From: Patescibacteria group bacterium
GTDB taxonomy: Bacteria > Patescibacteriota > Minisyncoccia > Phycocordibacterales > JAACPR01
Direction of reading: 5' to 3'
Assembly (NCBI GenBank): GCA_022711495.1
Contig: JAKLEX010000001.1
Span: 291,379-355,378, forward strand
DNA length: 64,000 nt
The position numbers and the translations under genes were made by a program. The notes under the pieces were generated by a model, which did no database searches, was not told where the DNA came from, and saw only the letters and a list, made by a program, of their open reading frames with translations. Position 1 is the stretch's first letter, and every line of letters begins with the position of its first letter. Shown here one piece after another: positions 4,414 to 53,168 of this stretch.

Positions 4414-5439
4414 ATGATGTCACTTATGGGAATCTTTACACCTAAATTGGGGATAGACCTTGGTACAGCCAACACTTTAGTCTTTGTTCCAGGTCGCGGC
4501 ATTGTTTTGAACGAACCATCCGTTGTGGCTGTTTCCGAACAGGACAATAAGATTTTAGCCGTCGGCGCTGAAGCTCGCGATATGATCGGCAAAACGCCGG
4601 GAAACATTGTGGCTTATCGTCCGATGCGCGATGGTGTCATTGCCGATTATCGCGTTACCGAGGCCATGCTCTCTTATTTTATAAACAAAGCTCTACCACG
4701 GTTTAATCTTTTCAAACCGGAAGTTTTGATTTCTGTTCCGGCCGGCATCACTTCCACGGAACGCCGCGCGGTCATAGAAGCGGCTATTAAATCCGGCGCC
4801 AAAAACGCCTATGTCGTAAAGGAACCAATTCTGGCGGCTATTGGTGCCGGCATCCCTATAAATGATGCTCAGGGACGAATGGTTGTTGATATCGGCGGAG
4901 GCACAACCGACGTGGCTGTTATTTCGTTGGGCGGAATTGTGGCCTCAACTTCAGTTAAAGTCGCTGGCGATAAAATTGACAATGCCATTGCTGATTATGT
5001 TAAGAAAACTTTCAATTTGGCCATTGGCGATAAGACGGCCGAACGAATAAAGATACGAATCGGCTCGGCGGTGTTGTTGGATGAAGAATTGAAGATGGAC
5101 ATAAAGGGCCGAGACTTTTTGACTGGGCTACCACGCTCTATTGAAATTAAAACCAACGAAATCGTCAAAGCCATAAACCGCGAACTCCGCGACATCATCA
5201 AGGCCATAAAAGATGTCTTGCAGGAAACTCCACCGGAATTGTCTTCAGACATTATTGATTTTGGAATTACTATGACTGGCGGAACGGCGCAATTGCGAAA
5301 CATGACCGAACTTGTTTTCCGTCGAACCGGCGTCAAAGCGCATCTGGCTAAAGATCCGTTATTCTGTGTCGCCAAAGGAACCGGCATTGCTCTCAACCAT
5401 CTTGATACTTATAAAAAGAGTATTATCGCCAAGAGATAA
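4414..5439 (+). CDS. mreB: rod shape-determining protein MreB (paralog 1)
   Basis: An actin-like ATPase with LGIDLGTANTLVFV phosphate-1 and DIGGGTTDVAV phosphate-2 motifs. The first ATG may be 3-15 nt downstream of the ORF start. Confidence 0.9.
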   Translation: MMSLMGIFTPKLGIDLGTANTLVFVPGRGIVLNEPSVVAVSEQDNKILAVGAEARDMIGKTPGNIVAYRPMRDGVIADYRVTEAMLSYFINKALPRFNLFKPEVLISVPAGITSTERRAVIEAAIKSGAKNAYVVKEPILAAIGAGIPINDAQGRMVVDIGGGTTDVAVISLGGIVASTSVKVAGDKIDNAIADYVKKTFNLAIGDKTAERIKIRIGSAVLLDEELKMDIKGRDFLTGLPRSIEIKTNEIVKAINRELRDIIKAIKDVLQETPPELSSDIIDFGITMTGGTAQLRNMTELVFRRTGVKAHLAKDPLFCVAKGTGIALNHLDTYKKSIIAKR

Positions 5440-6137
5440 TGGACGAAATAATTCAACAATACAAGAAAAGCGGGACACTGCACCATTTTTATATTATCGC
5501 TGGCCAGTCAGAATCGGCGATTGAGAAAGTTTTGAATTTTTGCCAAGCCTCTCTCGTGCCGAAAGGCAAGTTTGCTTCATCGGTTTTTCAGTATCAATTT
5601 GATCGTTTGGTAATCGCCGACGCTCGGGCCATTTGCGCCCGTGGTTTGATCAAGGCCGAGACGGGTAGCAAAACAATTTTTGTAATTTCTTTTAATTCGG
5701 TCACGGCTGAAGCGCAAAACTCTCTTCTGAAAAGCATTGAAGAGCCAACGGCCAACACGATTTTCTTTTTTATTGTGCCTGATTCAAAAATCTTTTTACC
5801 GACGGTTTTGTCTCGAGCCATTCTGGTTAAAGAGGAGGCCGCCGAAGAAACGGCCGGCAGCCGACAACTTTTGGATGAGCTACTTCGGAAAGATATCGCC
5901 GGCCGAATGAAGTTCGTTGAATCGGCCATAAAAGACATAAAAAACGAAAAACAATCTCGTGCTTACGCCCGGGAAATAGTTTTGTCTCTGATGACCGGTT
6001 TGCGCCACTCGCTGTCTGAAAAACCGGAATACGCCGTTTCTTTACGGAAATTACAAGAAGTGAACAAGTATCTTGCTGACCCAGCGGCTTCTTTAAAGAT
6101 TCTGCTGGAGCGGGCCATTTTGTCATTACCAAAATAA
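5439..6137 (+). CDS. DNA polymerase III delta-prime-like clamp-loader subunit (degenerate, no P-loop)
   Basis: 232 aa. The motifs T.EAQNSLLKSIEEP...TIFFF and LPTVLSRA match the HolB/DnaX sensor-1 and SRC regions. The Walker A site is replaced by IIAGQSE. The start codon overlaps the mreB stop (TAATG). Confidence 0.6.
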   Translation: MDEIIQQYKKSGTLHHFYIIAGQSESAIEKVLNFCQASLVPKGKFASSVFQYQFDRLVIADARAICARGLIKAETGSKTIFVISFNSVTAEAQNSLLKSIEEPTANTIFFFIVPDSKIFLPTVLSRAILVKEEAAEETAGSRQLLDELLRKDIAGRMKFVESAIKDIKNEKQSRAYAREIVLSLMTGLRHSLSEKPEYAVSLRKLQEVNKYLADPAASLKILLERAILSLPK

Positions 6138-6714: not shown

Positions 6715-7815
6715 ATGTTCTTGGCGGCTATTTTGTTGATAGTAATTCTGGGAGTTCTGATTTTTGTTCACGAACTTGGCCATTTTTTAATCGCCAAAAA
6801 ATCTGGAATAAGAGTTGACGAATTTGCCCTCGGCTTTCCACCACGGTTGTTTAGTTTCAAAAAAGGGGAGACGAAATATTCCATAAATTTAATTCCGTTT
6901 GGCGGATTCGTGAAGATTTTTGGCGAGGATGTTGACGATGAAAGTTCCGATCCAAATCGGACCGACAGTTTCCTGAACAAATCTAAATTGACGCAAGCGG
7001 TGGTTTTATCCGCCGGAGTTTTATTTAATGTCTTTTTTGGCTATGTTTTGATTTCTATAAGTTTGATGGCCGGATTTCCTTCTATTATTACGGACAGAAA
7101 CTCGGATTGGGTTTCAGACGCTCGCGTGGTCGTGAGCGGCGTTTTACCGAACTCACCGGCGAAAATGGCTGGAATTGAGCCGGGCGATTCAATTTTGCGG
7201 GTTGTAAAAGGAGGGAAGACCTTGGGTCCAGAAGAGATCACCGTTTCTAATATTCAAAATATTATCGCCGGCGGCGAAGCCGGAGAAGTTTCTCTAACTT
7301 TGATCCGAAACGGAGAAGAGAGAAATGTCGTGGTGGATACGACTCCCGGGATAATCGCCGATAAACAGGCCATCGGCATCTCAATGGAAAAAATCGGCAC
7401 CGTGAAGTTTCCTTTTTTCCGTGCGCTCGGCGAAGGGATAATTTTGACTGGTCAGACAATTAAAGAAGTCGCCGTTGGTTTGGCAAGAATCATCGGAATG
7501 GCGGTTACCGGACGTGCTTCTCTGAATGATATCGCCGGTCCGGTAGGAATCGTCGGACTGGTGAATTCGGCTCGAAATTTTGGTTTCTTTTATTTGTTAA
7601 CTTTCACGGCGTTCATTTCTTTGAACTTGGCGGTTTTGAATATTTTGCCTTTGCCGGCGTTGGACGGCGGGCGGCTTTTGATGATTTTGATTGAAGCGAT
7701 CTCCCGCCGAAAAATAAAACCAGCCGTGGCCAATTGGCTAAACGGAATCGGCTTTGCTTTGCTGATGTTATTTATGATCGCCGTGACGGTCAATGATATT
7801 TTAAGGTTGGTTTAG
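6715..7815 (+). CDS. rseP: RIP site-2 zinc metalloprotease RseP
   Basis: HELGHF (HExxH) sits in the first transmembrane helix. A PDZ domain is present. The C-terminal LDGG motif is present. Confidence 0.85.
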   Translation: MFLAAILLIVILGVLIFVHELGHFLIAKKSGIRVDEFALGFPPRLFSFKKGETKYSINLIPFGGFVKIFGEDVDDESSDPNRTDSFLNKSKLTQAVVLSAGVLFNVFFGYVLISISLMAGFPSIITDRNSDWVSDARVVVSGVLPNSPAKMAGIEPGDSILRVVKGGKTLGPEEITVSNIQNIIAGGEAGEVSLTLIRNGEERNVVVDTTPGIIADKQAIGISMEKIGTVKFPFFRALGEGIILTGQTIKEVAVGLARIIGMAVTGRASLNDIAGPVGIVGLVNSARNFGFFYLLTFTAFISLNLAVLNILPLPALDGGRLLMILIEAISRRKIKPAVANWLNGIGFALLMLFMIAVTVNDILRLV

Positions 7816-13701: not shown

Positions 13702-14136
13702 ATGTTAATCGGCGAATACAAACACACACTGGATGACAAAAAACGAATCTCTCTGCCGATGAGATTTCGCAAAGAAATCGGCAGGAAGGTCGTGGTTACG
13801 CACGGATTAGACCAATGTTTGTTCATGTATTCGGTAGGAGAGTGGGAAAAAATCTCTCAGAAAATCGGAGAGCTTGGCATGGGACAGGCCGATCGCCGAG
13901 GCTTTAACCGTTTTATGTTGGCTGGAGCCTCGGAGCTATCGGTTGATTCTGTCGGCCGAATCTTGCTCCCGGAACATTTACGAAAATTTGCTCGAATCAG
14001 TTCCAAGGTGGTTTTTGCCGGAGTTTATAACCGAATAGAAGTTTGGGACGAAACGGCCTGGGAGCAATACAAAGCAAAAGTTGTCAGAGGTGCCGATGAT
14101 ATTGCTCAAAAGCTTGGTGATATCGGAGCTCTGTAG
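13702..14136 (+). CDS. mraZ: transcriptional regulator MraZ
   Basis: 144 aa. A duplicated DxxxR motif (DDKKRISLP and DSVGRILLP) is present. It is the first gene of the dcw cluster. Confidence 0.9.
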   Translation: MLIGEYKHTLDDKKRISLPMRFRKEIGRKVVVTHGLDQCLFMYSVGEWEKISQKIGELGMGQADRRGFNRFMLAGASELSVDSVGRILLPEHLRKFARISSKVVFAGVYNRIEVWDETAWEQYKAKVVRGADDIAQKLGDIGAL

Positions 14137-15388: not shown

Positions 15389-17126
15389 AAAGAATCTAGT
15401 CGCAAAAGGGAGGGTTTATTTTGTTTTTGCCGTTTTCATTTTAATAAGTCTTCTTTTGATTTCTAAATTGTATTTGGTGCAGATTGTTGAAGGCGAATTT
15501 TATTCTCAAAGAGCCGATCGGCAACACATTCGACCAACGGCCAGCATTTTTGATCGCGGTTCCATTTTTTTCACCACTAAAGACGGCGAGAAGATAAACG
15601 CCGCGACTTTAAAGTCGGGCTTCAAAGTCGCCATTAGTCCGAGCCTGATTATTCATCCAGAAGATGTTTTTAATAATTTAAGTTTATATTTGGCCATTCC
15701 GGAAGAATCTTATTTGAATCACGCGGAGAAAATTGGTGACCCGTACGAAGAAATTGCTCGTCGAGTTCCGTATGAAATCGGCCAGCAGATTAAAGATCTA
15801 AATATCAACGGAGTATCGGTTATTGATGAAAATTGGCGTTCTTATCCTGGTGATGAACTGGCCGCGCAAACTGTCGGTTTTGTGGCTTACGGCGATGATG
15901 ACGACATAAAGGGACGCTATGGCTTGGAAAGACAATACGAAGACATTCTTGGTCGTGATCATAGAAATATCTTTACTAACTTTTTTGTTGAAATTTTTTC
16001 CGAAGCGGCGGAAGCTTTGAAAGACGAGAATAGCATGGAAGGCTCCATTGTTACCACAATAGAACCGGAAGTTCAGCTATTTGTTGATAATGAACTTAAA
16101 ACCGTGCGAGAGACCTGGTCTCCGAAAAAGGCTGGAGCGATTGTTATGGACCCAAACGATGGAGCTATTCGCGCCCTGTCTCTTAGCCCCAACTTTGATC
16201 TTAACCAATTTAATTTAGTCTCTGACCCAGCTATTTACAAAAACGACCTGATTGAAAGCGTCTATGAGATGGGTTCAATTATAAAACCCCTAACTTTGTC
16301 AGTTGGTCTTGACGTTGGTGCCATCACGCCCAATTCGACTTATGAAGACCGGGGTTATATTTCTTTAAACAACAAAACCATTTGGAATCATGATAAAAAA
16401 GCTCACGGAGTCGTCAGCATGCAAGAAGTTCTCAATAAATCTTTAAATACCGGCGCCGGTTTTGTTGAACAGAAAATGGGCAATGAAATTTTTGCGGATT
16501 ATATGAAAAAACTTTTTGACCAGAAAACCGGCGTTGATTTACCTAATGAAGCCAAATCAATTCTTTATCCGAATTTAAGTAGCAATACTGACATTGAATA
16601 TGTCACGGCCTCTTATGGGCAGGGCATCGCCATGAGTCCGATTAGCGTTATTCGAGCGCTGGCCGCCCTGGGTAACGGTGGCAAATTAGTGACTCCTCAC
16701 TTGGTTGAGCAAATAGAATACGATCTGGGTTTTTCTAAAGATTTAGATTGGCCAGAACCAGTTTCGGTTTTCAAACCGGAGACGTCTGAAAACATTACGC
16801 GGATGTTGGTTGAGACAGTGGACACGGCTTTGCGCGGTGGACAATTTTCTCTTAGAAATTACAGCATCGCCGCCAAAACCGGCACGGCGCAGATCCCGAA
16901 AAGTTACGAGGCCGGGTATTACGACGATCGTTTTCTGCACTCATTTTTCGGATATTTTCCCGCTTACGATCCACAATTTATAATTTTTCTATATCAGCTT
17001 GAACCGGTTGGCGGACAATACGCTGCCGATACTTTAACCGAACCCTTTATGAATATTACTAAATTTCTGATAAATTATTATTCAATACCGGCCGATAGGC
17101 AAAACTCAAATGAAAGCATTAATTAG
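15381..17126 (+). CDS. ftsI: peptidoglycan D,D-transpeptidase FtsI (PBP3-like class B PBP)
   Basis: 581 aa. An N-terminal transmembrane segment, SIIKP (SxxK), SLN and KTGTAQ motifs are present. dcw position. Confidence 0.8.
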   Translation: MNKKNLVAKGRVYFVFAVFILISLLLISKLYLVQIVEGEFYSQRADRQHIRPTASIFDRGSIFFTTKDGEKINAATLKSGFKVAISPSLIIHPEDVFNNLSLYLAIPEESYLNHAEKIGDPYEEIARRVPYEIGQQIKDLNINGVSVIDENWRSYPGDELAAQTVGFVAYGDDDDIKGRYGLERQYEDILGRDHRNIFTNFFVEIFSEAAEALKDENSMEGSIVTTIEPEVQLFVDNELKTVRETWSPKKAGAIVMDPNDGAIRALSLSPNFDLNQFNLVSDPAIYKNDLIESVYEMGSIIKPLTLSVGLDVGAITPNSTYEDRGYISLNNKTIWNHDKKAHGVVSMQEVLNKSLNTGAGFVEQKMGNEIFADYMKKLFDQKTGVDLPNEAKSILYPNLSSNTDIEYVTASYGQGIAMSPISVIRALAALGNGGKLVTPHLVEQIEYDLGFSKDLDWPEPVSVFKPETSENITRMLVETVDTALRGGQFSLRNYSIAAKTGTAQIPKSYEAGYYDDRFLHSFFGYFPAYDPQFIIFLYQLEPVGGQYAADTLTEPFMNITKFLINYYSIPADRQNSNESIN

Positions 17127-18417
17127 AAAAGTCATATTTATAATACTAACGATTGAAGCAAAAATTGTTCTTTTGCGTTATCGTCCGAAGATTATCGTTG
17201 TTAGTGGCACGGTTGGTAAGACGACGACCAAGGATGCCATTTTCTCGGCCCTCTCAAAGACTTTTCATGTTAGAAAGAATTCTAAAAGTTTGAACAGTGA
17301 AATTGGTGTGCCCTTAACTATTTTGGGTCTGGAAACCGGTTGGAATAATCCGTGGCGCTGGTTGTCTAATCTAGTCATTGGATTTTTGGAGATAATCTAT
17401 TATCCAAAATATCCCGAGTGGTTAGTAATTGAAGTCGGAATTGATCATCCGGGAGACATGAAAAAAACTGCTTCATGGCTTAAGCCGAATGTTGCGGTTT
17501 TGACGGCCTTTGGCCAAGTTCCGGTTCACGTAGAATTTTTTGAAGGACCAGACGATGTCACGAAAGAAGAAGCTGATATCATCAATTATTTACGCCGAGA
17601 CGGAATTATTGTCTTGAACGCCGACGACGAAAAAGCTCTGCGGTTGAAAGGGAAGACGAATCACAAAGTTTATACTTTCGGTAAGGGAGAGAATGCCGAC
17701 CTGGTTGCTTCTCATTATTCGGTGGTTTATGAATCTGTAAATGGCCGACCAGTTCCGCGCGGCGTTTCTTTCAAGGTCAGTTATTTGGGCAGTATTCTGC
17801 CGATTTCAGTAAGAAATGTTGTTGGCGATCAATTTGTTTATCCGATTCTGGCGGCGCTTTCCGTTGGCGTAGCGGTTAATTCATCGTTGGTTTCTTCTTT
17901 GGAGGGTTTGCGAAATTTTAAAGCGCCAAAAGGTCGCATGAATTTACTGGCTGGTGAAAACGAGACGATTATTATTGACGACAGTTACAATTCTTCACCG
18001 ATGGCGGCGACCAGCGCCATTCGCAATTTAGCCGAAATAGAAACGGCGGGGTCAAGAATCGCGGTGCTTGGCGATATGGCAGAAATCGGGCGATTCTCCG
18101 CCAGTGAACATCGCAAAATCGGAGCTTTAATTAAACAAAAGAAAATTGATATTTTGATAACTGTCGGCCGCGCTTCGGAATTGATGAATGAGCAGGCGAT
18201 TGAAGAGGGCATGGCTCAATCGCGCAATTATCATTTCAGTCATTCGGAAGAAGCTATCGCGACAGTTAAGAGATATTTAAAGCCGGGCAATATTATTTTG
18301 GTTAAGGGATCGCAATCAATGCGGATGGAAAGAATCACTAAGGCGATTATTTTGGAAAAGGATTCGGCTTCGGATTTGATTGTTAGGCAGGAAAAAGAAT
18401 GGCTAGCGAGAAGTTAA
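17110..18417 (+). CDS. murF: UDP-N-acetylmuramoyl-tripeptide--D-alanyl-D-alanine ligase MurF
   Basis: The Mur ligase P-loop GTVGKTTTKD and the IIDDSYNSSP motif (the DDSYN signature of MurF) are present. Confidence 0.75.
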   Translation: MKALIRKVIFIILTIEAKIVLLRYRPKIIVVSGTVGKTTTKDAIFSALSKTFHVRKNSKSLNSEIGVPLTILGLETGWNNPWRWLSNLVIGFLEIIYYPKYPEWLVIEVGIDHPGDMKKTASWLKPNVAVLTAFGQVPVHVEFFEGPDDVTKEEADIINYLRRDGIIVLNADDEKALRLKGKTNHKVYTFGKGENADLVASHYSVVYESVNGRPVPRGVSFKVSYLGSILPISVRNVVGDQFVYPILAALSVGVAVNSSLVSSLEGLRNFKAPKGRMNLLAGENETIIIDDSYNSSPMAATSAIRNLAEIETAGSRIAVLGDMAEIGRFSASEHRKIGALIKQKKIDILITVGRASELMNEQAIEEGMAQSRNYHFSHSEEAIATVKRYLKPGNIILVKGSQSMRMERITKAIILEKDSASDLIVRQEKEWLARS

Positions 18418-18582
18418 GAAGTAACAAAACTCCAAAGCATTTTTCAAGACACGCGTCGGCTCCTCCAGCGAGGAGCCGCGCTACTCTCGGTCGGTTTTCG
18501 GCACTCTTCGGTGCCGACCAAGCAAAACCGACCTGCGAGAGTCTCTCAAAATGCTTTGGAGTTTTGTTAGGGAGCTTAACTT
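18411..18582. ncRNA. highly structured palindromic element (candidate ncRNA / MITE-like repeat): 8+22 bp perfect closing stem enclosing three internal hairpins
   Basis: AAGTTAAG..GTAACAAAACTCCAAAGCATTTT at 18411-18443 pairs perfectly with AAAATGCTTTGGAGTTTTGTTA..CTTAACTT at 18550-18582. The internal hairpins are CGGCTCCTC-cagcg-GAGGAGCCG, GTCGGTTTT[CGGCAC-tcttcg-GTGCCG]...AAAACCGAC and GAGA-gtc-TCTC. The overlapping 68 aa ORF has no RBS and is judged non-coding. Confidence 0.5.
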
Positions 18583-18613
18583 CTCATTTAAAAATGCTAT
18601 ATTAATTGCCACT

Positions 18614-18687
18614 GGCCCTATCGTCTAACGGTTAGGACATCGCCTTCTCAAGGCGGAAATCAGAGTTCGATTCTCTGTAGGGTCACC
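18614..18687 (+). tRNA. tRNA-Glu (anticodon CTC)
   Basis: GGCCCTA acceptor (G2-U71 wobble), TCGCC-TTCTCAA-GGCGG anticodon arm with anticodon CTC, a 4 nt variable loop, CAGAG-TTCGATT-CTCTG T-arm, discriminator A and an encoded CC. Confidence 0.85.
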
Positions 18688-27437: not shown

Positions 27438-27656
27438 ATGGTTGTAAGAATGCGTAGCAATAGTTCTCATACGGGTAATCGCCGATCTCATATTAAATTG
27501 AGCAAGCCGGCGTTAACTCGCGACCAAAATGGCGCTCTATCGTTGCGCCATCGTGTTTCTCCGATTTCTGGAATGTACAAAGGAAAACAGGTTCTTGATT
27601 TAACTAAGAAGCTTACTAAGAAAGCCAAGAAGATAGAAGAGACAGAAAAGAAATAG
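27438..27656 (+). CDS. rpmF: 50S ribosomal protein bL32 (cysteine-free form)
   Basis: RRSHIKLSKPAL...LRHRVSPISGMYKGKQVL aligns with the bL32 consensus RRSHxALxxPAL..C..CG...LxHRVCPxCGYYKGxxV. All four zinc-ligand positions are substituted. Start taken at the MVVRMRS codon. Confidence 0.6.
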   Translation: MVVRMRSNSSHTGNRRSHIKLSKPALTRDQNGALSLRHRVSPISGMYKGKQVLDLTKKLTKKAKKIEETEKK

Positions 27657-27657
27657 G

Positions 27658-27717
27658 AAATTGGCAAAACACTTTTGAGAGACTCTCGCGTGTCTCGAAA
27701 AAGTGTTTTGCCAATTT
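27658..27717. terminator. giant near-perfect hairpin (about 27 bp stem) between rpmF and nusB; likely terminator/palindromic repeat
   Basis: AAATTGGCAAAACACTTTTGAGAGAC-tctcgcgt-GTCTCGAAAAAGTGTTTTGCCAATTT. A T-rich tract follows. The centre shares the core GCGAGAGTCTCTCAAAA with the element at 18535. Confidence 0.5.
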
Positions 27718-27768
27718 TCCCTTTACTTTTCTGTATAAAAAGTTAAAATTGTCCTGTACCTTAAAAGC

Positions 27769-28683
27769 ATGGCGAATCGGCACCTTTCACGATCAATAGT
27801 GTTGCAGTCTCTCTTCGAATGGGATTTTCGGGGAGATGCCAAATTTGATGTTGATGAAACTATTTTGCGCAATGCTACGGAATTTGCTCCGGGAATCAGC
27901 GACGCGCCCTTTATGAAGAAGTTGCTTGAAACAGTTCTGGCCAAAAAATCCGAGCTGGATAAAATTATTACCAAAGCCGCGCCCGATTGGCCCCTAGATA
28001 AAATCTCCATTGTTGATAGAAATATTTTGCGTATTGGTCTGGCCGAACTGCTTTTTGCTGACCGAGAAGAAGTCCCGTCTAAAGTCGCCATAAACGAAGC
28101 TATTGAATTGGCTAAAACTTTCGGCGGCGAATCTTCCAGTAAGTTTGTTAACGGCGTTTTAGGCGCAGTTTATAAAGAGCTGGGAGAGCCAGGTAAAGAC
28201 GAATCAAAATCCAAAAAGCGTCGCGATATACCTTTTGAACAGATGCCTGTTGAGAAAAAGGCCGGCGCGGTTATTTATTCTGTTCATGACGGAGGAATCT
28301 ATATTGCTTTGGTGCATGATGTTTTCGGCCACTGGACTTTATCAAAAGGTGGAATTGAGTCTGGTGAAACCGACGAGGTCGGGGCCGTTCGCGCCATTAA
28401 GCAAGAACTTGGTCTGGACATAGAAATCGTTGACAGAATCGGGGAGAACGAATACGTTGCCAATCATCCGGAAAAAGGACAGCACCGTAAGCAAGTTGTT
28501 TACTTTTTAGCCAAGTCCAAATTTGAAGAACTTAAATTGAGTCAGTCTGGCGGTCTTGATAACGCGCAGTGGTTTAAGCTGGCCGACATCCTTGACCTTA
28601 ATTTTTATGATGATATTCTGCCTCTAGTTACTAAGGCGTTGAAGAAATTAGCGGAAATAAATGTCCGAGTAACGACTACTTAA
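27769..28683 (+). CDS. nusB: NusB-NUDIX fusion protein (N-terminal NusB antitermination fold, C-terminal NUDIX hydrolase-like domain with degenerate Nudix box)
   Basis: The N-terminal 130 aa are NusB-like (SRSIVLQSLFEWDF...RNILRIGLAELLF). A lysine-rich linker follows. The C-terminus has GGIESGETDEVGAVRAIKQELGL, matching GX5EX7R.UX.EXGU with REUxEE replaced by RAIKQE. Confidence 0.6.
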   Translation: MANRHLSRSIVLQSLFEWDFRGDAKFDVDETILRNATEFAPGISDAPFMKKLLETVLAKKSELDKIITKAAPDWPLDKISIVDRNILRIGLAELLFADREEVPSKVAINEAIELAKTFGGESSSKFVNGVLGAVYKELGEPGKDESKSKKRRDIPFEQMPVEKKAGAVIYSVHDGGIYIALVHDVFGHWTLSKGGIESGETDEVGAVRAIKQELGLDIEIVDRIGENEYVANHPEKGQHRKQVVYFLAKSKFEELKLSQSGGLDNAQWFKLADILDLNFYDDILPLVTKALKKLAEINVRVTTT

Positions 28684-29379
28684 ATGAATTACAAAAAAAT
28701 AGCTGAAAAGCTCGGCGTAGATTTTAATGATGAGAGTCTGTTAAAACAGGCTTTTACTCACCGTTCTTATTTGAATGAAAACCGCGGCAGCAATCTTCAA
28801 CATAATGAACGTCTGGAATTTTTAGGTGACGCGGTTATGGAACTGGCTACAACCGATTACTTATATCGTAGCTTTCCGAATAAAACCGAGGGCGATCTGA
28901 CGGCTTTACGCGCTTCGCTGGTCAACACCCAAACGATTTCCAATGTCGCCAACGAGCTTGGTTTAAATGAATATTTGTTGTTATCTAAAGGTGAAGCTAA
29001 AGATCGGGGTCGTGCTCGACAATATATTTTAGCCAACACTTTTGAATCAATTATTGGCGCCATTTATCTGGATCAAGGGTACGAACGAGCCAAATTATTT
29101 ATTTATCAAAACCTTATGAGTCGATTGGAAGAAATTCTAACTCAAGGTTCTTGGATTGACGCCAAAAGCAAATTACAAGAAATAGTTCAAGAAAAATTAG
29201 GAATTACTCCGACTTACAAAACTATAAAAGAAGAAGGCCCGGACCATGACAAAAAGTTCACTGTTGCCCTATTCTATGGCGAAAAAGAAATCAATATTGG
29301 TCAGGGGAAATCCAAACAGGAAGCCGAACAAAGTGTGGCTCAGAAGGTGTTGCTGGAAGAAGCCGCTTCTTCAAAATAA
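28684..29379 (+). CDS. rnc: ribonuclease III
   Basis: ERLEFLGDAV is the RNase III signature. A C-terminal dsRBD is present. Confidence 0.9.
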   Translation: MNYKKIAEKLGVDFNDESLLKQAFTHRSYLNENRGSNLQHNERLEFLGDAVMELATTDYLYRSFPNKTEGDLTALRASLVNTQTISNVANELGLNEYLLLSKGEAKDRGRARQYILANTFESIIGAIYLDQGYERAKLFIYQNLMSRLEEILTQGSWIDAKSKLQEIVQEKLGITPTYKTIKEEGPDHDKKFTVALFYGEKEINIGQGKSKQEAEQSVAQKVLLEEAASSK

Positions 29380-34154: not shown

Positions 34155-34463
34155 ATGTCAGGAAGAGAACTAGATTATCAATTTTTGGAGTATGTAGTCA
34201 AAACTCTCGTTGATAATCCAAAAGATGTAAAAATTGATAGAACGGTTGATGAAATGGGCGTGTTGTTGACGCTGACGGTTAATCCGGAAGATATGGGCAA
34301 GATAATCGGACGACAGGGAAATACCGCCAAGGCCATTAGAACCCTTTTGAGAGTTGTCGGCATGAAAAATAATGCTCGCGTTAATCTAAAAATAAATGAG
34401 CCGGAAGGTGGTAAGAAATCGGCCACTTCGGTTGACGAGGCGGTTGAAGATTTGAAGCTGTAA
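34155..34463 (+). CDS. KH-domain RNA-binding protein (YlqC/UPF0109 family)
   Basis: IGRQGNTAKAIRTLL carries the GxxG KH loop. Its position directly after rpsP is conserved. Confidence 0.75.
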   Translation: MSGRELDYQFLEYVVKTLVDNPKDVKIDRTVDEMGVLLTLTVNPEDMGKIIGRQGNTAKAIRTLLRVVGMKNNARVNLKINEPEGGKKSATSVDEAVEDLKL

Positions 34464-34503
34464 AAAACCCAATCAAAACCTCTAAACTATTTTTTCGAGA
34501 TGT

Positions 34504-34538
34504 GCGTCAGCTCCCCCAGTAGGGAGCTGCGCTTTTTT
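34504..34538 (+). terminator. rho-independent terminator after the KH gene
   Basis: GCGTCAGCTCCC-ccagta-GGGAGCTGCGC forms a hairpin followed by TTTTTT. Confidence 0.6.
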
Positions 34539-34656
34539 GGGACGATTTTTCACCTTCGGTGAAACCAAGAAGAATCATCCTGCGGAAGTTTCTTAAAAAG
34601 TGTTTGGAATTATTTATTTGTTTTATAGTTTGAAATGAGCTAATCTGAACTTTAAT

Positions 34657-35298
34657 ATGAATTTCCATATAATCTCACTTTTTCCAAATTCCATGAGCTC
34701 TTATATTAAGGAGTCTATTATCGGTCGCGCCATAAAGGATAAAAAAATTAGAGTTAAATTTTATAACCCAAGAGATTTTACCAGGGACAAATGGCGCCGG
34801 ATTGATCAAAAGCCGTATGGCGGTGGACCGGGCATGGTTATTCAAGCCGAGCCGGTTATTCGCGCAATCTCCAAGGCCATTGCTCGAAAAAATAAATACA
34901 AAATTGTTTTTCTGTCTCCTGGCGGTAAGCAGTTTGATACTAAAACCGCTCGACAAATCGCCCAATCTATAAAAGATTTGGTAATCATCGCCGGCCGCTA
35001 TGAAGGGATCGATGAAAGGGTTAATAAAGTTTTTAAGACCGAGAAAATTTCCGTTGGTCCGTATGTTTTGACTGGCGGGGAATTGCCGGCCCTGATTTTG
35101 GTTGATTCAATTTCTCGCCAGATTGAGGGCGTTTTGGGCAACGATTTGTCATTAGAAGAACGGCGGATTTCTTCAAACAAAGTTTATACGCGTCCGGAGA
35201 TCTTCAAAATAAAAGATAAAAATTACCGTGTGCCAAAAGTTCTTCTAAGCGGTGACCATAAGAAAATCAACATGTGGAAAAACGCCGGTAACAAATAA
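34657..35298 (+). CDS. trmD: tRNA (guanine37-N1)-methyltransferase TrmD
   Basis: SPOUT knot motifs YGGGPGMV and IAGRYEGIDERV are present. Confidence 0.9.
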   Translation: MNFHIISLFPNSMSSYIKESIIGRAIKDKKIRVKFYNPRDFTRDKWRRIDQKPYGGGPGMVIQAEPVIRAISKAIARKNKYKIVFLSPGGKQFDTKTARQIAQSIKDLVIIAGRYEGIDERVNKVFKTEKISVGPYVLTGGELPALILVDSISRQIEGVLGNDLSLEERRISSNKVYTRPEIFKIKDKNYRVPKVLLSGDHKKINMWKNAGNK

Positions 35299-35371: not shown

Positions 35372-36640
35372 ATGTTTTTTTCTAGATCATTAAGACGAAA
35401 CACCTCAAAAGGTTTCACTCTCCTGGAAATGCTCTTGGTCATCGCCATCATCGCCATCTTAGCTGCTATCGTTATCGTGGCCATCAACCCAGCGCGGCAA
35501 CTAGCCCAAGCTCGAAATGCTCAAAGAGCTAGTGATCTCAATGCTATCCATAAAGCTGTCCAACAGTACTACATAGATAACCTGGAATACCCAGACGGTT
35601 TAGATAGTAGTCTGCAAGAAATCTGCAATACTGGCGGAGGAGAAGATTGTATTGATATTGAAGACGCTTTAGTACCAACTTATCTTTCTGCTCTACCAGA
35701 AAATCCAAATGGTGGTAATTACGAAATCGCTCTACAGACTGGCAACAAACTAGCTTTAGTTGCTCCTGGTTCAAAAGAACAAGGACTTGGCGGCATTGTC
35801 ATTGGAACTTCAACTTCGTTAGTTGAAGAAGAAGGTGGTGGAGGGGGAGAAGAATGTGATGTTACTGCTGCCGGATCCTATGACTCCGCTACTGATGGCG
35901 ATTACACAGTTTTAACTTTTGATGGGGCCGGCACGTTCACAGTTAACTCTGGTACCTGTGATGCTGATATTCTTGTTGTTGGCGGTGGAGGAGGAGGAGG
36001 GCAGAAACATTCCGGAGGTGGTGGAGGCGGCGGCGTTATAGAAGAAAGCGTATCTGGTTTATCTGGTGAAATAGGAATCTCTGTTGGTTCTGGTGGCGCA
36101 GGTGGGCCAGCTGGTGATCCTTATAATGCTGGAGAAAACGGCGGAGATAGCTCTTTTGGTGATGATTATATTGCAATTGGTGGCGGTGGAGGAGGGGGTT
36201 ATAGTACAGCAAATGAAGCCGGTGACGGTGGTTCTGGGGGAGGCGCCGGGCAGAATAATGATGATCCGCCAGGACTTGGTGAAGCTGGACAAGGTAATAA
36301 TGGAGGTGACGAGTCTAGCGGCCGAGGCGGAGGCGGTGGTGGGGCCGGCGCGGTTGGAGAGGACTCTGATGGCACTAACGGCGGAACCGGAGGTGATGGC
36401 ATTTCTTCTGATATAACAGGTGTCGCCACCTATTATGGTGGTGGCGGAGGTGGAGTTGGTCCATCCCAAGCCGCTGGCGGACAGGGAGGCGGTGGTTCTG
36501 GTGCAAATTACAGCGATGAAGGATCGTTTCCGGCGGAAGATGGAACGGATGGACTTGGTGGTGGCGGAGGTGGAGGTCAAGATGCCGCAGGCGGAGATGG
36601 CGGTGATGGTGTTGTTATAGTCCGATATATAGCCAGCTAG
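35372..36640 (+). CDS. type IV pilin-like protein with very large glycine/aspartate-rich low-complexity C-terminal domain
   Basis: A prepilin class III signal MFFSRSLRRNTSKG|FTLLEMLLVIAIIAILAAIVIVAINP is present. A pilin head domain follows (QQYYIDNLEYPDG). About 250 aa are made of runs such as GGGGGGG, GSGGAGG and GGDGGDG. Start chosen at the ATG at 35372 because the ORF's upstream part overlaps trmD. Confidence 0.65.
   Translation: MFFSRSLRRNTSKGFTLLEMLLVIAIIAILAAIVIVAINPARQLAQARNAQRASDLNAIHKAVQQYYIDNLEYPDGLDSSLQEICNTGGGEDCIDIEDALVPTYLSALPENPNGGNYEIALQTGNKLALVAPGSKEQGLGGIVIGTSTSLVEEEGGGGGEECDVTAAGSYDSATDGDYTVLTFDGAGTFTVNSGTCDADILVVGGGGGGGQKHSGGGGGGGVIEESVSGLSGEIGISVGSGGAGGPAGDPYNAGENGGDSSFGDDYIAIGGGGGGGYSTANEAGDGGSGGGAGQNNDDPPGLGEAGQGNNGGDESSGRGGGGGGAGAVGEDSDGTNGGTGGDGISSDITGVATYYGGGGGGVGPSQAAGGQGGGGSGANYSDEGSFPAEDGTDGLGGGGGGGQDAAGGDGGDGVVIVRYIAS
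35980..36600 (+). repeat. degenerate GGN-codon tandem repeats (low-complexity DNA encoding the Gly-rich tail)
   Basis: Reiterated ggtgg(a/t)gg(a/c)gg units occur throughout. Confidence 0.6.
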
Positions 36641-52202: not shown

Positions 52203-53168
52203 ATGAGAAGAAAAATCATAGTTCTCCGAGGTGGGCCGTCCAGCGAATACGAGGTTTCAATGAAAACTGGGCGGGCAGTTATTGACGAGCTATCAAAAAA
52301 GCACGAAATTTTGGACGTTGTCATTGACAAACAGGGCAAATGGATTTCGCGCGGTCGAGAAGTTCGACCGGAGATCATCTGTCAAAACTGCGATTTGGTT
52401 TTCAACGCTTTGCATGGCGAATTCGGCGAAGATGGGCAGGTTCAAAAAATTCTGGAAACTACCGGCGTCTGTTTCACCGGCCCGCAAAAATTGGCCGCGG
52501 CCCTTTCCATGAACAAAGCACAAACCAAAGACATTTATAAAAAGTTTGGAATTAAAACCCCATATTATAAGGTAGTTAACAGAGAAGACGGCGATATAGA
52601 TAAATTGGCAACTGATATTTTTAGAACTTTTCCGATGCCAGTAATTATTAAGCCGGTTAACCTCGGATCTTCGGTGGGAATCTCTATTGCTCGTGATTAC
52701 AAATCTTTGAAGGAGACTTTAACAAGTTTGTTTATTCGATACGATAAATTACTGGTAGAAGAATATATAAAAGGCAAGGAAGCCACCGTCGCGGTTGTTG
52801 AGAGCTTTAGAAATAAAGATTTCTACTCTCTTTTCCCGGTAGAAATCCGCATACCATCAAGTTCGGAGTTTTTTGATTACAACGCGAAATACTCTGGTGA
52901 AACGCAGGAAATTTGCCCCGGCAATTTTAGCGCCAAAGAAAGTGAAATTATGCAGGATCTCGCCATTAAAGCTCACCAGGCCCTTGGATTACGACACTAC
53001 TCGCGAACTGATTTCATTATTTCTCCGACCCGCGGAGTATATGTTATTGAAACAAACTCGTTGCCAGGCCTAACGAATGAATCTCTTTTGCCAAAGTCTT
53101 TGTTAGCAATTGGTTCAAATTACGGAGAGTTTCTCCAACATATAGTGGAATTGGCGATCGACAAATAA
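52203..53168 (+). CDS. ddl: D-alanine--D-alanine ligase
   Basis: N-terminal IIVLRGGPSSEYEVS. ATP-grasp fold. Start at the MRRKII codon. Confidence 0.85.
   Translation: MRRKIIVLRGGPSSEYEVSMKTGRAVIDELSKKHEILDVVIDKQGKWISRGREVRPEIICQNCDLVFNALHGEFGEDGQVQKILETTGVCFTGPQKLAAALSMNKAQTKDIYKKFGIKTPYYKVVNREDGDIDKLATDIFRTFPMPVIIKPVNLGSSVGISIARDYKSLKETLTSLFIRYDKLLVEEYIKGKEATVAVVESFRNKDFYSLFPVEIRIPSSSEFFDYNAKYSGETQEICPGNFSAKESEIMQDLAIKAHQALGLRHYSRTDFIISPTRGVYVIETNSLPGLTNESLLPKSLLAIGSNYGEFLQHIVELAIDK

Follow-up and report, generated by a model that had tools for sequence, protein, structure and literature searches.

Introduction

Palindromic repeats that lie between genes are known from several bacteria. 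The ERIC (or IRU) sequences of enterobacteria are imperfect palindromes of ~127 bp found in transcribed intergenic regions, in both orientations and in tens to hundreds of copies; they occur as longer and shorter variants through internal insertions or deletions, with the secondary structure maintained. The Correia elements of Neisseria (CREE or NEMIS) exist as a full form of ~150 bp and an internally deleted form of ~105 bp, create promoters, and are bound or cleaved by RNase III (PMC2649163). REPINs are extragenic, non-autonomous mobile repeats that form hairpins, with folding predicted in single-stranded DNA or mRNA (PMC3116915). In the literature that we searched, no dispersed palindromic repeats are described for CPR/Patescibacteria. 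The genomes of this group are small and streamlined, and their transcription signals are largely uncharacterised.

Here we analyze 64,000 nucleotides of a patescibacterial genome (contig JAKLEX010000001.1, positions 291,379 to 355,378; hereafter the window, whose first letter is position 1). A reading of the sequence alone, referred to below as the sequence-only reading, had pointed to a 17-mer, GCGAGAGTCTCTCAAAA, shared by two distant hairpins. We report that, in a small family of hairpin-forming repeats with three copies (S1, S2, and S3) at gene ends, this 17-mer is the part that is conserved best. The sequence of the family and its host are new, but its kind is familiar, and it resembles the palindromic intergenic repeats of other bacteria. 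With modest confidence, we regard the family as small, lineage-specific palindromic intergenic repeat elements of a Candidatus Paceibacterota (CPR) genome, which would have spread within the lineage and would serve in termination or processing.

The closest analogue is the Correia element of Neisseria. Correia elements are palindromic and intergenic, measure ~100-155 bp, lie beside genes, and form long hairpins on transcription; our full-length S1 and S3 (~150 nt) and short S2 (~62 nt) mirror their full and deleted forms. S1 runs at its 3' edge into a -35 hexamer, which recalls the promoter hexamers at Correia ends (PMC2649163). The differences are that the sequences are unrelated, the host belongs to another phylum, and there are three copies in ~80 kb against more than 100; in addition, there is no demonstrable TA target duplication, the interior folds as a three-way junction that carries GC-rich hairpins, and a role of RNase III is predicted only. 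With ERIC/IRU sequences the family shares the palindromic form, intergenic location, both orientations, and length variants, but neither sequence nor host nor the higher ERIC copy number. The sequence-only reading had proposed a REP/BOX-like dispersed palindromic family at operon boundaries. The family is real, with at least three copies after stop codons and with promoter-like sites following S1 and S2, and like REP sequences and REPINs it consists of extragenic hairpin repeats at gene 3' ends. The more specific REP/BOX label is not borne out by these copies: REP units are short (about 20-40 nt), highly over-represented (tens to hundreds per genome), and RAYT-associated, whereas the units described here span 60-175 nt, number three in ~80 kb, and have no RAYT gene in that stretch.

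Results

A shared core at the apex of two large hairpins

As the sequence-only reading had claimed, GCGAGAGTCTCTCAAAA matches exactly at 18535-18551 on the plus strand and at 27673-27689 on the minus strand, and these are its only two occurrences in the window. The two sites lie in S1 and S2, the two largest inverted repeats of the window. Both had been described as giant hairpins, and in our folding they are very stable: S1, computed on 18405-18590, reaches -101 kcal/mol (z=-12), and S2, computed on 27650-27725, reaches -38.2 kcal/mol on the plus strand (z=-10.7) and -36.2 kcal/mol on the minus strand (z=-8.9). We also confirmed arms with CAAAAC/GTTTTG at both sites, and the flanking genes are those that had been named. 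S1 lies between a MurF-type Mur ligase gene (17110-18417) and tRNA-Glu(CTC) (18614-18687); S2 lies between the L32 gene rpmF, which ends at 27656, and a NusB-NUDIX fusion (27769-28683), followed by the RNase III gene rnc (28684-29379). The next strongest hairpins, at 13881-13950 in the MraZ gene and 36421-36490 in a glycine-rich pilin-like gene, are both coding and reach -33 kcal/mol with z about -4.4.

The statement that a chance 17/17 match is very unlikely in 64 kb proved wrong when taken alone. Simulated 64-kb windows (second-order Markov model) held a mean of 1.2 pairs of 17-mer repeats, with one or more pairs in 50% of them. The window itself has two other, unrelated exact 17-mer direct repeats: one (30414/42292) lies inside the SMC and rpoC ORFs, and the other (35444/54059) starts in the gene of a pilin-like glycine-rich protein and may represent an N-terminal pilin motif that the two sites share. 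Pure coincidence, or a single duplication of a terminator into two copies, would thus be compatible with a lone 17-mer repeat, expected in about half of such sequences, and with the lack of copies elsewhere in exact 17-mer scans. We nevertheless excluded chance, because (i) S1 and S2 have a second block in common, TTTTTC(A/G)AGACACGCG, with 15/16 positions matching; (ii) the shared sequence has an identical placement at the hairpin apex, the two apices agreeing at 29/30 positions once 79 nt are taken out of S1, and this core sits at the apex of the window's two largest hairpins; and (iii) there is a third copy, S3 (z=23, see below), which refutes the coincidence reading. A covariance model built from the other two copies also recovers S2. 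Coincidence or a two-copy terminator duplication is therefore extremely improbable.

A third, diverged copy upstream of trmD

S3 was first flagged in a sliding-window folding census as an intergenic hairpin at 34501-34570 that resembles the interior of S1. On both strands of the window, no sequence other than S1 itself matches S1 better. The two sequences align end to end over ~140 nt with roughly 70% identity and a local score of 69, against 16.3 +- 2.3 (maximum 26) for 1000 dinucleotide shuffles (z=23). The outer arms of S3 are partly decayed. Both sites of the sequence-only reading are therefore real, but its count of two is not, as it missed this third copy. We had considered that the 79-nt GC-rich interior of S1 is a nested foreign insertion, and rejected this: S3 carries the same interior, which is therefore integral to the family and not a one-off insertion. 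The coordinates of all three copies are given in Table 1.

Table 1. Positions of the three repeat copies, their parts, and adjoining promoter-like sites in the window
Feature	Position	Strand	Description
S1, full length with outer stem	18408-18585	+	11-bp outer stem 18408-18418/18575-18585; fold -101.4 kcal/mol, z=-12
S1 P1, 5' arm	18422-18443	+	22-bp perfect A/U-rich helix with 18548-18569
S1 left core half	18440-18455	+	TTTTTCAAGACACGCG; 15/16 match to S2
S1 H1	18453-18481	+	GCG-U-CGGCUCCUC-CAGC-GAGGAGCCG-CGC; kept in S3 with two compensatory pairs
S1 H2	18483-18542	+	Base ACUCUC/GAGAGU, middle GGUCGGUUU/AAACCGACC, apical CGGCAC..GUGCCG, conserved ACCAAG internal loop
17-mer in S1	18535-18551	+	Junction GCG, H2-base 3' strand GAGAG, P2 3' strand GUCU/C, loop UC, start of P1 3' arm AAAA
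S1 P1, 3' arm	18548-18569	+	Partner of 18422-18443
tRNA-Glu promoter-like site	18576-18603	+	TTAACT-16-TATATT with TG; overlaps S1 3' edge; block conserved in L076, L077, L078
S2, short form	27656-27719	- (family consensus strand)	21-bp P1 27656-27676/27699-27719, 2x2 internal loops, 8-nt loop
S2 30-nt core	27673-27702	-	TTTTTCGAGACACGCGAGAGTCTCTCAAAA; 17-mer plus left half
S2 P2	27679-27683/27692-27696	-	GAGAC/GUCUC; from the fold
nusB-NUDIX/rnc promoter-like site	27722-27749	+	TTTACT-16-TAAAAT; immediately 3' of S2; conserved in three relatives
S3, diverged full-length copy	about 34470-34620	+	Between KH-domain gene (34155-34463) and trmD (34657-35298)
S3 P1a	34481-34487/34602-34608	+	From the fold
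S3 P1b	34490-34494/34595-34599	+	From the fold
S3 P2	34497-34501/34588-34592	+	From the fold
S3 H1	34504-34532	+	From the fold
S3 H2	34533-34587	+	From the fold

The long form is a three-way junction, and S2 lacks its hairpins

S1 and S3 share one architecture: a long A/U-rich helix P1, a 2x2 internal loop, a P2 helix of 4-5 bp, and a three-way junction from which two GC-rich hairpins, H1 and H2, extend. The P2 strands are AGAC/GUCU in S1, GAGAC/GUCUC in S2, and GAGAU/GUUUC in S3. H2 is the longer of the two hairpins and bears an ACCAAG internal loop and a UUCG-type apex; ACCAAG and a second motif, CCUGCG, are conserved and unpaired in the long forms. The P1 arms are inverted repeats that enclose the core, and full-length and internally deleted variants are both present, as in Correia elements and MITEs. 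A consensus of 35 pairs for S1 and S3 contains five compensatory pairs and five changes to or from G.U. It was restricted to pairs that both copies can form, so that its 100% pairing holds by construction, but the compensatory counts do not; sliding the register by 1-3 columns left 0-1 such compensatory or wobble pairs.

We built a covariance model from S1 and S3 alone. It finds S2, on the minus strand, at a score of 22.6 bits (E about 0.001-0.004) and, with filters off, nothing in the window beyond S1, S2, and S3. Because the model recovers S2 in this way, S2 is the short form, from which both junction hairpins have been deleted. The missing stretch, with H1 and H2, amounts to 82 nt and is bounded by GCG repeats in S1 and by UGCG repeats in S3; S2 is also short of 7 nt per arm, symmetrically. 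Over 54 alignable positions, S1 and S2 are 87% identical. S2 is an internally deleted copy of the family in the opposite orientation.

The 11-nt palindrome GAGAGWCTCTC was said to lie at the center of both hairpins, and it does not. The axis of S2 falls at 27687/88 and the center of the palindrome at 27682, 5-6 nt off; in S1 it occupies part of the 3' half. The counterpart in S3, GGAAGTTTCTT, is not palindromic. A further proposal was that GAGAGWCTCTC is bound by a protein, for instance as a DNA operator for a dimeric regulator at operon boundaries, and its occurrence in both S1 and S2 beside promoter-like sites is in keeping with this. However, conservation is asymmetric over 30 nt and reaches into structured hairpins, the palindrome is missing ahead of these conserved promoters in all relatives, and the window holds just one other near-match, at 53125, which contains a mismatch. 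We disfavor the operator because S3 lacks the palindrome and because the palindrome is off-axis in S1 and S2, where it is accounted for by two RNA/DNA helices whose 3' strands overlap; an operator now seems very unlikely.

The elements follow stop codons and resemble terminators in part

Each of the three copies begins no more than about 10 nt from a stop codon and lies between co-directional genes. Both long forms have the sense orientation of their operons, and S2 is inverted. S1 and S2 have a promoter-like site directly downstream; behind S3, the sole promoter-like match overlaps the trmD start and is at shuffle expectation. In the outer stem of S1, the final murF codons, stop included, are base-paired with the -35 region of the promoter-like site ahead of tRNA-Glu. 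The 3' arm of this stem, CTTAACTTCTC, is conserved in the relative L076, and the conservation of the promoter blocks in relatives shows this arm to be ancestral promoter sequence. MurF here ends in W-L-A-R-S-stop (window 18403-18417), and its homologs in L076, L077, and L083 end in W-(L/S)-x-R-stop; the outer stem of S1 contains both the added codon and the new stop, as if the original stop had been displaced by the element.

Like intrinsic terminators, the elements stand directly after stop codons, S2 occupies a site where relatives have an ordinary terminator, and H1 of S3, with the TTTTTT that follows it, passes as a canonical intrinsic terminator. The perfect A/U-rich stems of 21-22 bp in S1 and S2, the internal loops, and the three-way junction of the long form exceed an ordinary terminator by far, and S1 lacks a good U-tract; neither the S1 nor the S2 hairpin was called by a simple terminator scan. 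U-rich tails follow S2 (4 U in 8) and S3. The uninterrupted duplex measures 22 bp in S1 and 21 bp in S2, against only 7+5 bp with loops in S3, where at least 20 bp, or about two turns, is taken as the criterion for RNase III. The perfect duplexes of S1 and S2 are thus probable RNase III substrates, as predicted from the folds.

The elements are confined to one lineage in the sequences sampled

The window is matched at 100% identity by seven independent contigs, drawn from JGI, Logan, ENA, and NCBI, which excludes an assembly artefact as the source of the elements. The strains of the species are all identical, and there is no within-species polymorphism of the elements. The contigs extend the window by flanks of 9 kb and 7.5 kb, in which we found no further copy and no comparable hairpin. 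All three homologous copies thus fall inside 16 kb of ~80 kb of contiguous genome, with none in the remaining ~64 kb. Logan contigs of the same clonal genome (L029 and L031) end at the S1 3' edge (18588) and restart inside tRNA-Glu (18627); therefore, the hairpin/tRNA junction breaks short-read assemblies. Left of the window, eight small ORFs (66-260 aa) without a Pfam family (L081 15029-19713) may be a variable or mobile region, and a gene-free gap of ~1.2 kb around tRNA-Asn straddles the left window edge (L081 11561-12755).

We then compared the orthologous junctions of relatives. Three relatives with a ThrRS of 83, 82, and 74% identity keep the rnhB-rpmF-nusB/NUDIX-rnc-smc synteny. At the S2 site they have only a hairpin of 10-17 bp, made of an A-tract, stem, and T-tract, between well-aligned flanks, and the promoter is conserved. 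The NusB of the window is a protein of 304 aa with a C-terminal NUDIX hydrolase domain (27769-28683). This fusion occurs in all relatives examined (L070 4811-5725, L072 4827-5741, L074 3371-4294), where RNase III and then SMC always follow.

The murF junction is more varied. It is a 47-nt spacer with no hairpin in L083 (MurF 72%), leads into another gene in L084 (70%), is rearranged in L076 (79%), where the tRNA-Glu promoter has no upstream hairpin, and holds a small ORF in L078 (66%). Presence in this genome is thus matched by absence at orthologous sites in relatives, with a short terminator at the S2 site and, in L083, the hairpin-free spacer at the S1 site. In L077 (71%), a hairpin of about 117 nt lies at exactly the orthologous position and reaches 13 bits with the covariance model (E 0.46 in 82 kb). 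We rejected it as an established homolog of the family, as its alignment scores to S1, S2, and S3 are at the shuffle mean. In about 140 kb from six relatives, no copy was detected. The sequence-only reading had reasoned that only two copies in the genome and none in relatives would leave coincidence or a simple terminator duplication; relatives are indeed without the elements at the sites compared, but a third copy is present in the same genome.

Several features of this neighborhood stood out in passing. The region downstream of tRNA-Glu(CTC) is variable in relatives; in L078 (7940-13234) it carries a transposase-like island, with a helicase, an N6/N4 methyltransferase, and an HTH gene. Several contigs (the ends of L077, L083, L029, and L031) break at or just after tRNA-Glu(CTC), which suggests an integration hot spot. 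In L076, the closest relative by MurF, a gene-free stretch of 466 nt follows murF (5122-5587). Parts of this stretch are GC-rich and look structured, and a clean terminator (GGCACCATGTTTTGTAAACATAGGTGCCTTTTTT) lies at its end; the stretch has no Rfam match and may be an unannotated ncRNA. In L077, a GC-rich, highly structured-looking segment without an Rfam match (7534-7719) runs from directly 3' of tRNA-Glu to the contig end.

Wider scans, in genome and metagenome collections that do not include the source contigs, gave only chance matches to the exact 17-mer: 27 in 185,579 species genomes, 37 in metagenome contigs, and 1 in viral contigs, all without the left half or a hairpin. A degenerate H1 pattern had 0 matches in viral contigs, and blastn of S1 against phage and plasmid collections gave no match.

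Copying, local duplication, or a functional RNA

Six features bear on how the family arose: (i) graded divergence, ~13% between S1 and S2 against ~30% between S1 and S3; (ii) long and internally deleted forms; (iii) copies in both orientations; (iv) one decaying copy; (v) sites at gene ends; and (vi) absence from relatives. Together, these features make it most likely, as far as sequence comparison goes, that the elements spread by copying in this lineage. Other observations weigh against a simple mobile element: there are no target-site duplications, there is no transposase in 80 kb, the copies are clustered, and compensatory changes occur alongside conserved unpaired motifs. Pfam annotation of the genes in the window and its 16.5 kb of flanks revealed no RAYT, IS200, or other transposase. 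No target-site duplication is discernible at S1 or S2, whose flanks are not direct repeats; GTAA../..TTAG at S1 and ATTGG../..CCAAT at S2 are inverted complements that extend the palindrome, and the TA..TA at the S1 ends belongs to the palindrome.

We therefore weighed a local origin without any mobility mechanism, in which duplication or ectopic gene conversion among neighboring terminator hairpins, through recombination or template switching, acted within 16 kb. This would account for the clustering of all three copies, with none in the other ~64 kb sampled, for the lack of transposase and target-site duplications, and for the location of all copies at terminator positions, where S2 replaces the positional terminator of relatives. 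The spread of divergence, however, implies that such events recurred over time, S1 and S3 share an orientation that S2 does not have, and conversion needs flanking homology, of which the surrounding genes give none. Moreover, clustering is to be read against a sample that covers only about 10% of a CPR-sized genome, if its size is assumed to be roughly 0.6-1 Mb. We consider a purely local origin improbable.

A different possibility is that the long form encodes a true structured RNA, non-coding or cis-acting, which would be either an RNase III-dependent module for operon punctuation or processing or a regulatory leader of tRNA-Glu and trmD, with S2 as a degenerate derivative. Compensatory change and conserved unpaired motifs keep this reading alive: the architecture is retained at about 70% identity with five compensatory pairs, and ACCAAG, CCUGCG, and the UUCG-type apical loop are conserved. 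It also agrees with the sense orientation of both long forms, with the count of G.U pairs in S3 (8 on the plus strand vs 3 on the minus strand), with the RNase III gene two genes downstream of S2, and with the large hairpin at the orthologous murF|tRNA-Glu junction in L077.

Against this, that hairpin aligns no better than shuffled sequence, the roughly 140 kb from six relatives hold no detectable copy, and close relatives have either nothing or something else in place of the elements at the corresponding junctions. Of the three copies, one is inverted and another has decaying arms. Overall folding energy shows no consistent strand bias across the elements, and therefore does not decide between RNA and DNA readings. 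In Rfam 15, no family matched S1 or S3, and only tRNAs reached a gathering score; the best scores in a permissive search with S1 and S3 (E<=10) were 8-19 bits, where the thresholds are 36-80. We also considered and rejected integron attC sites, retron ncRNA, 6S, SRP, Y-RNA-like, and IS200/TnpB-associated RNAs, as there was no Rfam signal and there were no associated genes. We regard a functional RNA as a minority possibility. Its more specific version, a new Paceibacterota structured RNA with a three-way junction on an RNase III-length stem, acting as a punctuation or processing module before tRNA-Glu, trmD, and nusB-rnc and not as selfish DNA, we hold to be unlikely.

Discussion

The reading that we favor, by a slight preference rather than with assurance, is a Correia/ERIC-like family of palindromic repeats that is specific to this lineage and whose members serve as predicted terminator or processing hairpins. 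Under the Correia/ERIC-like reading, the elements would have been copied within the genome in the manner of non-autonomous, MITE-type repeats such as Correia, ERIC, and REPIN. S2 may have derived from an S1-like copy through a slippage deletion between the GCG repeats, and would have taken over the place of an ordinary ancestral rpmF terminator. RNA transcribed from either strand would fold into a long hairpin that ends or punctuates the upstream transcript, and the hairpin could act as a terminator, a 3'-end protector, or a processing signal. For the last of these, the perfect duplexes of 21-22 bp would be long enough for the RNase III encoded close by.

There is a practical side to such hairpins, which coincide with assembly breaks, as at the Logan contig end on the 3' edge of S1. 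Should the functional-RNA reading be true instead, the long form would be a new family for Rfam. If the elements are Correia/ERIC-like, they offer a concrete set of probable RNase III or terminator sites, and the family would represent selfish or co-opted hairpin DNA that shapes the boundaries of transcription units in CPR bacteria.
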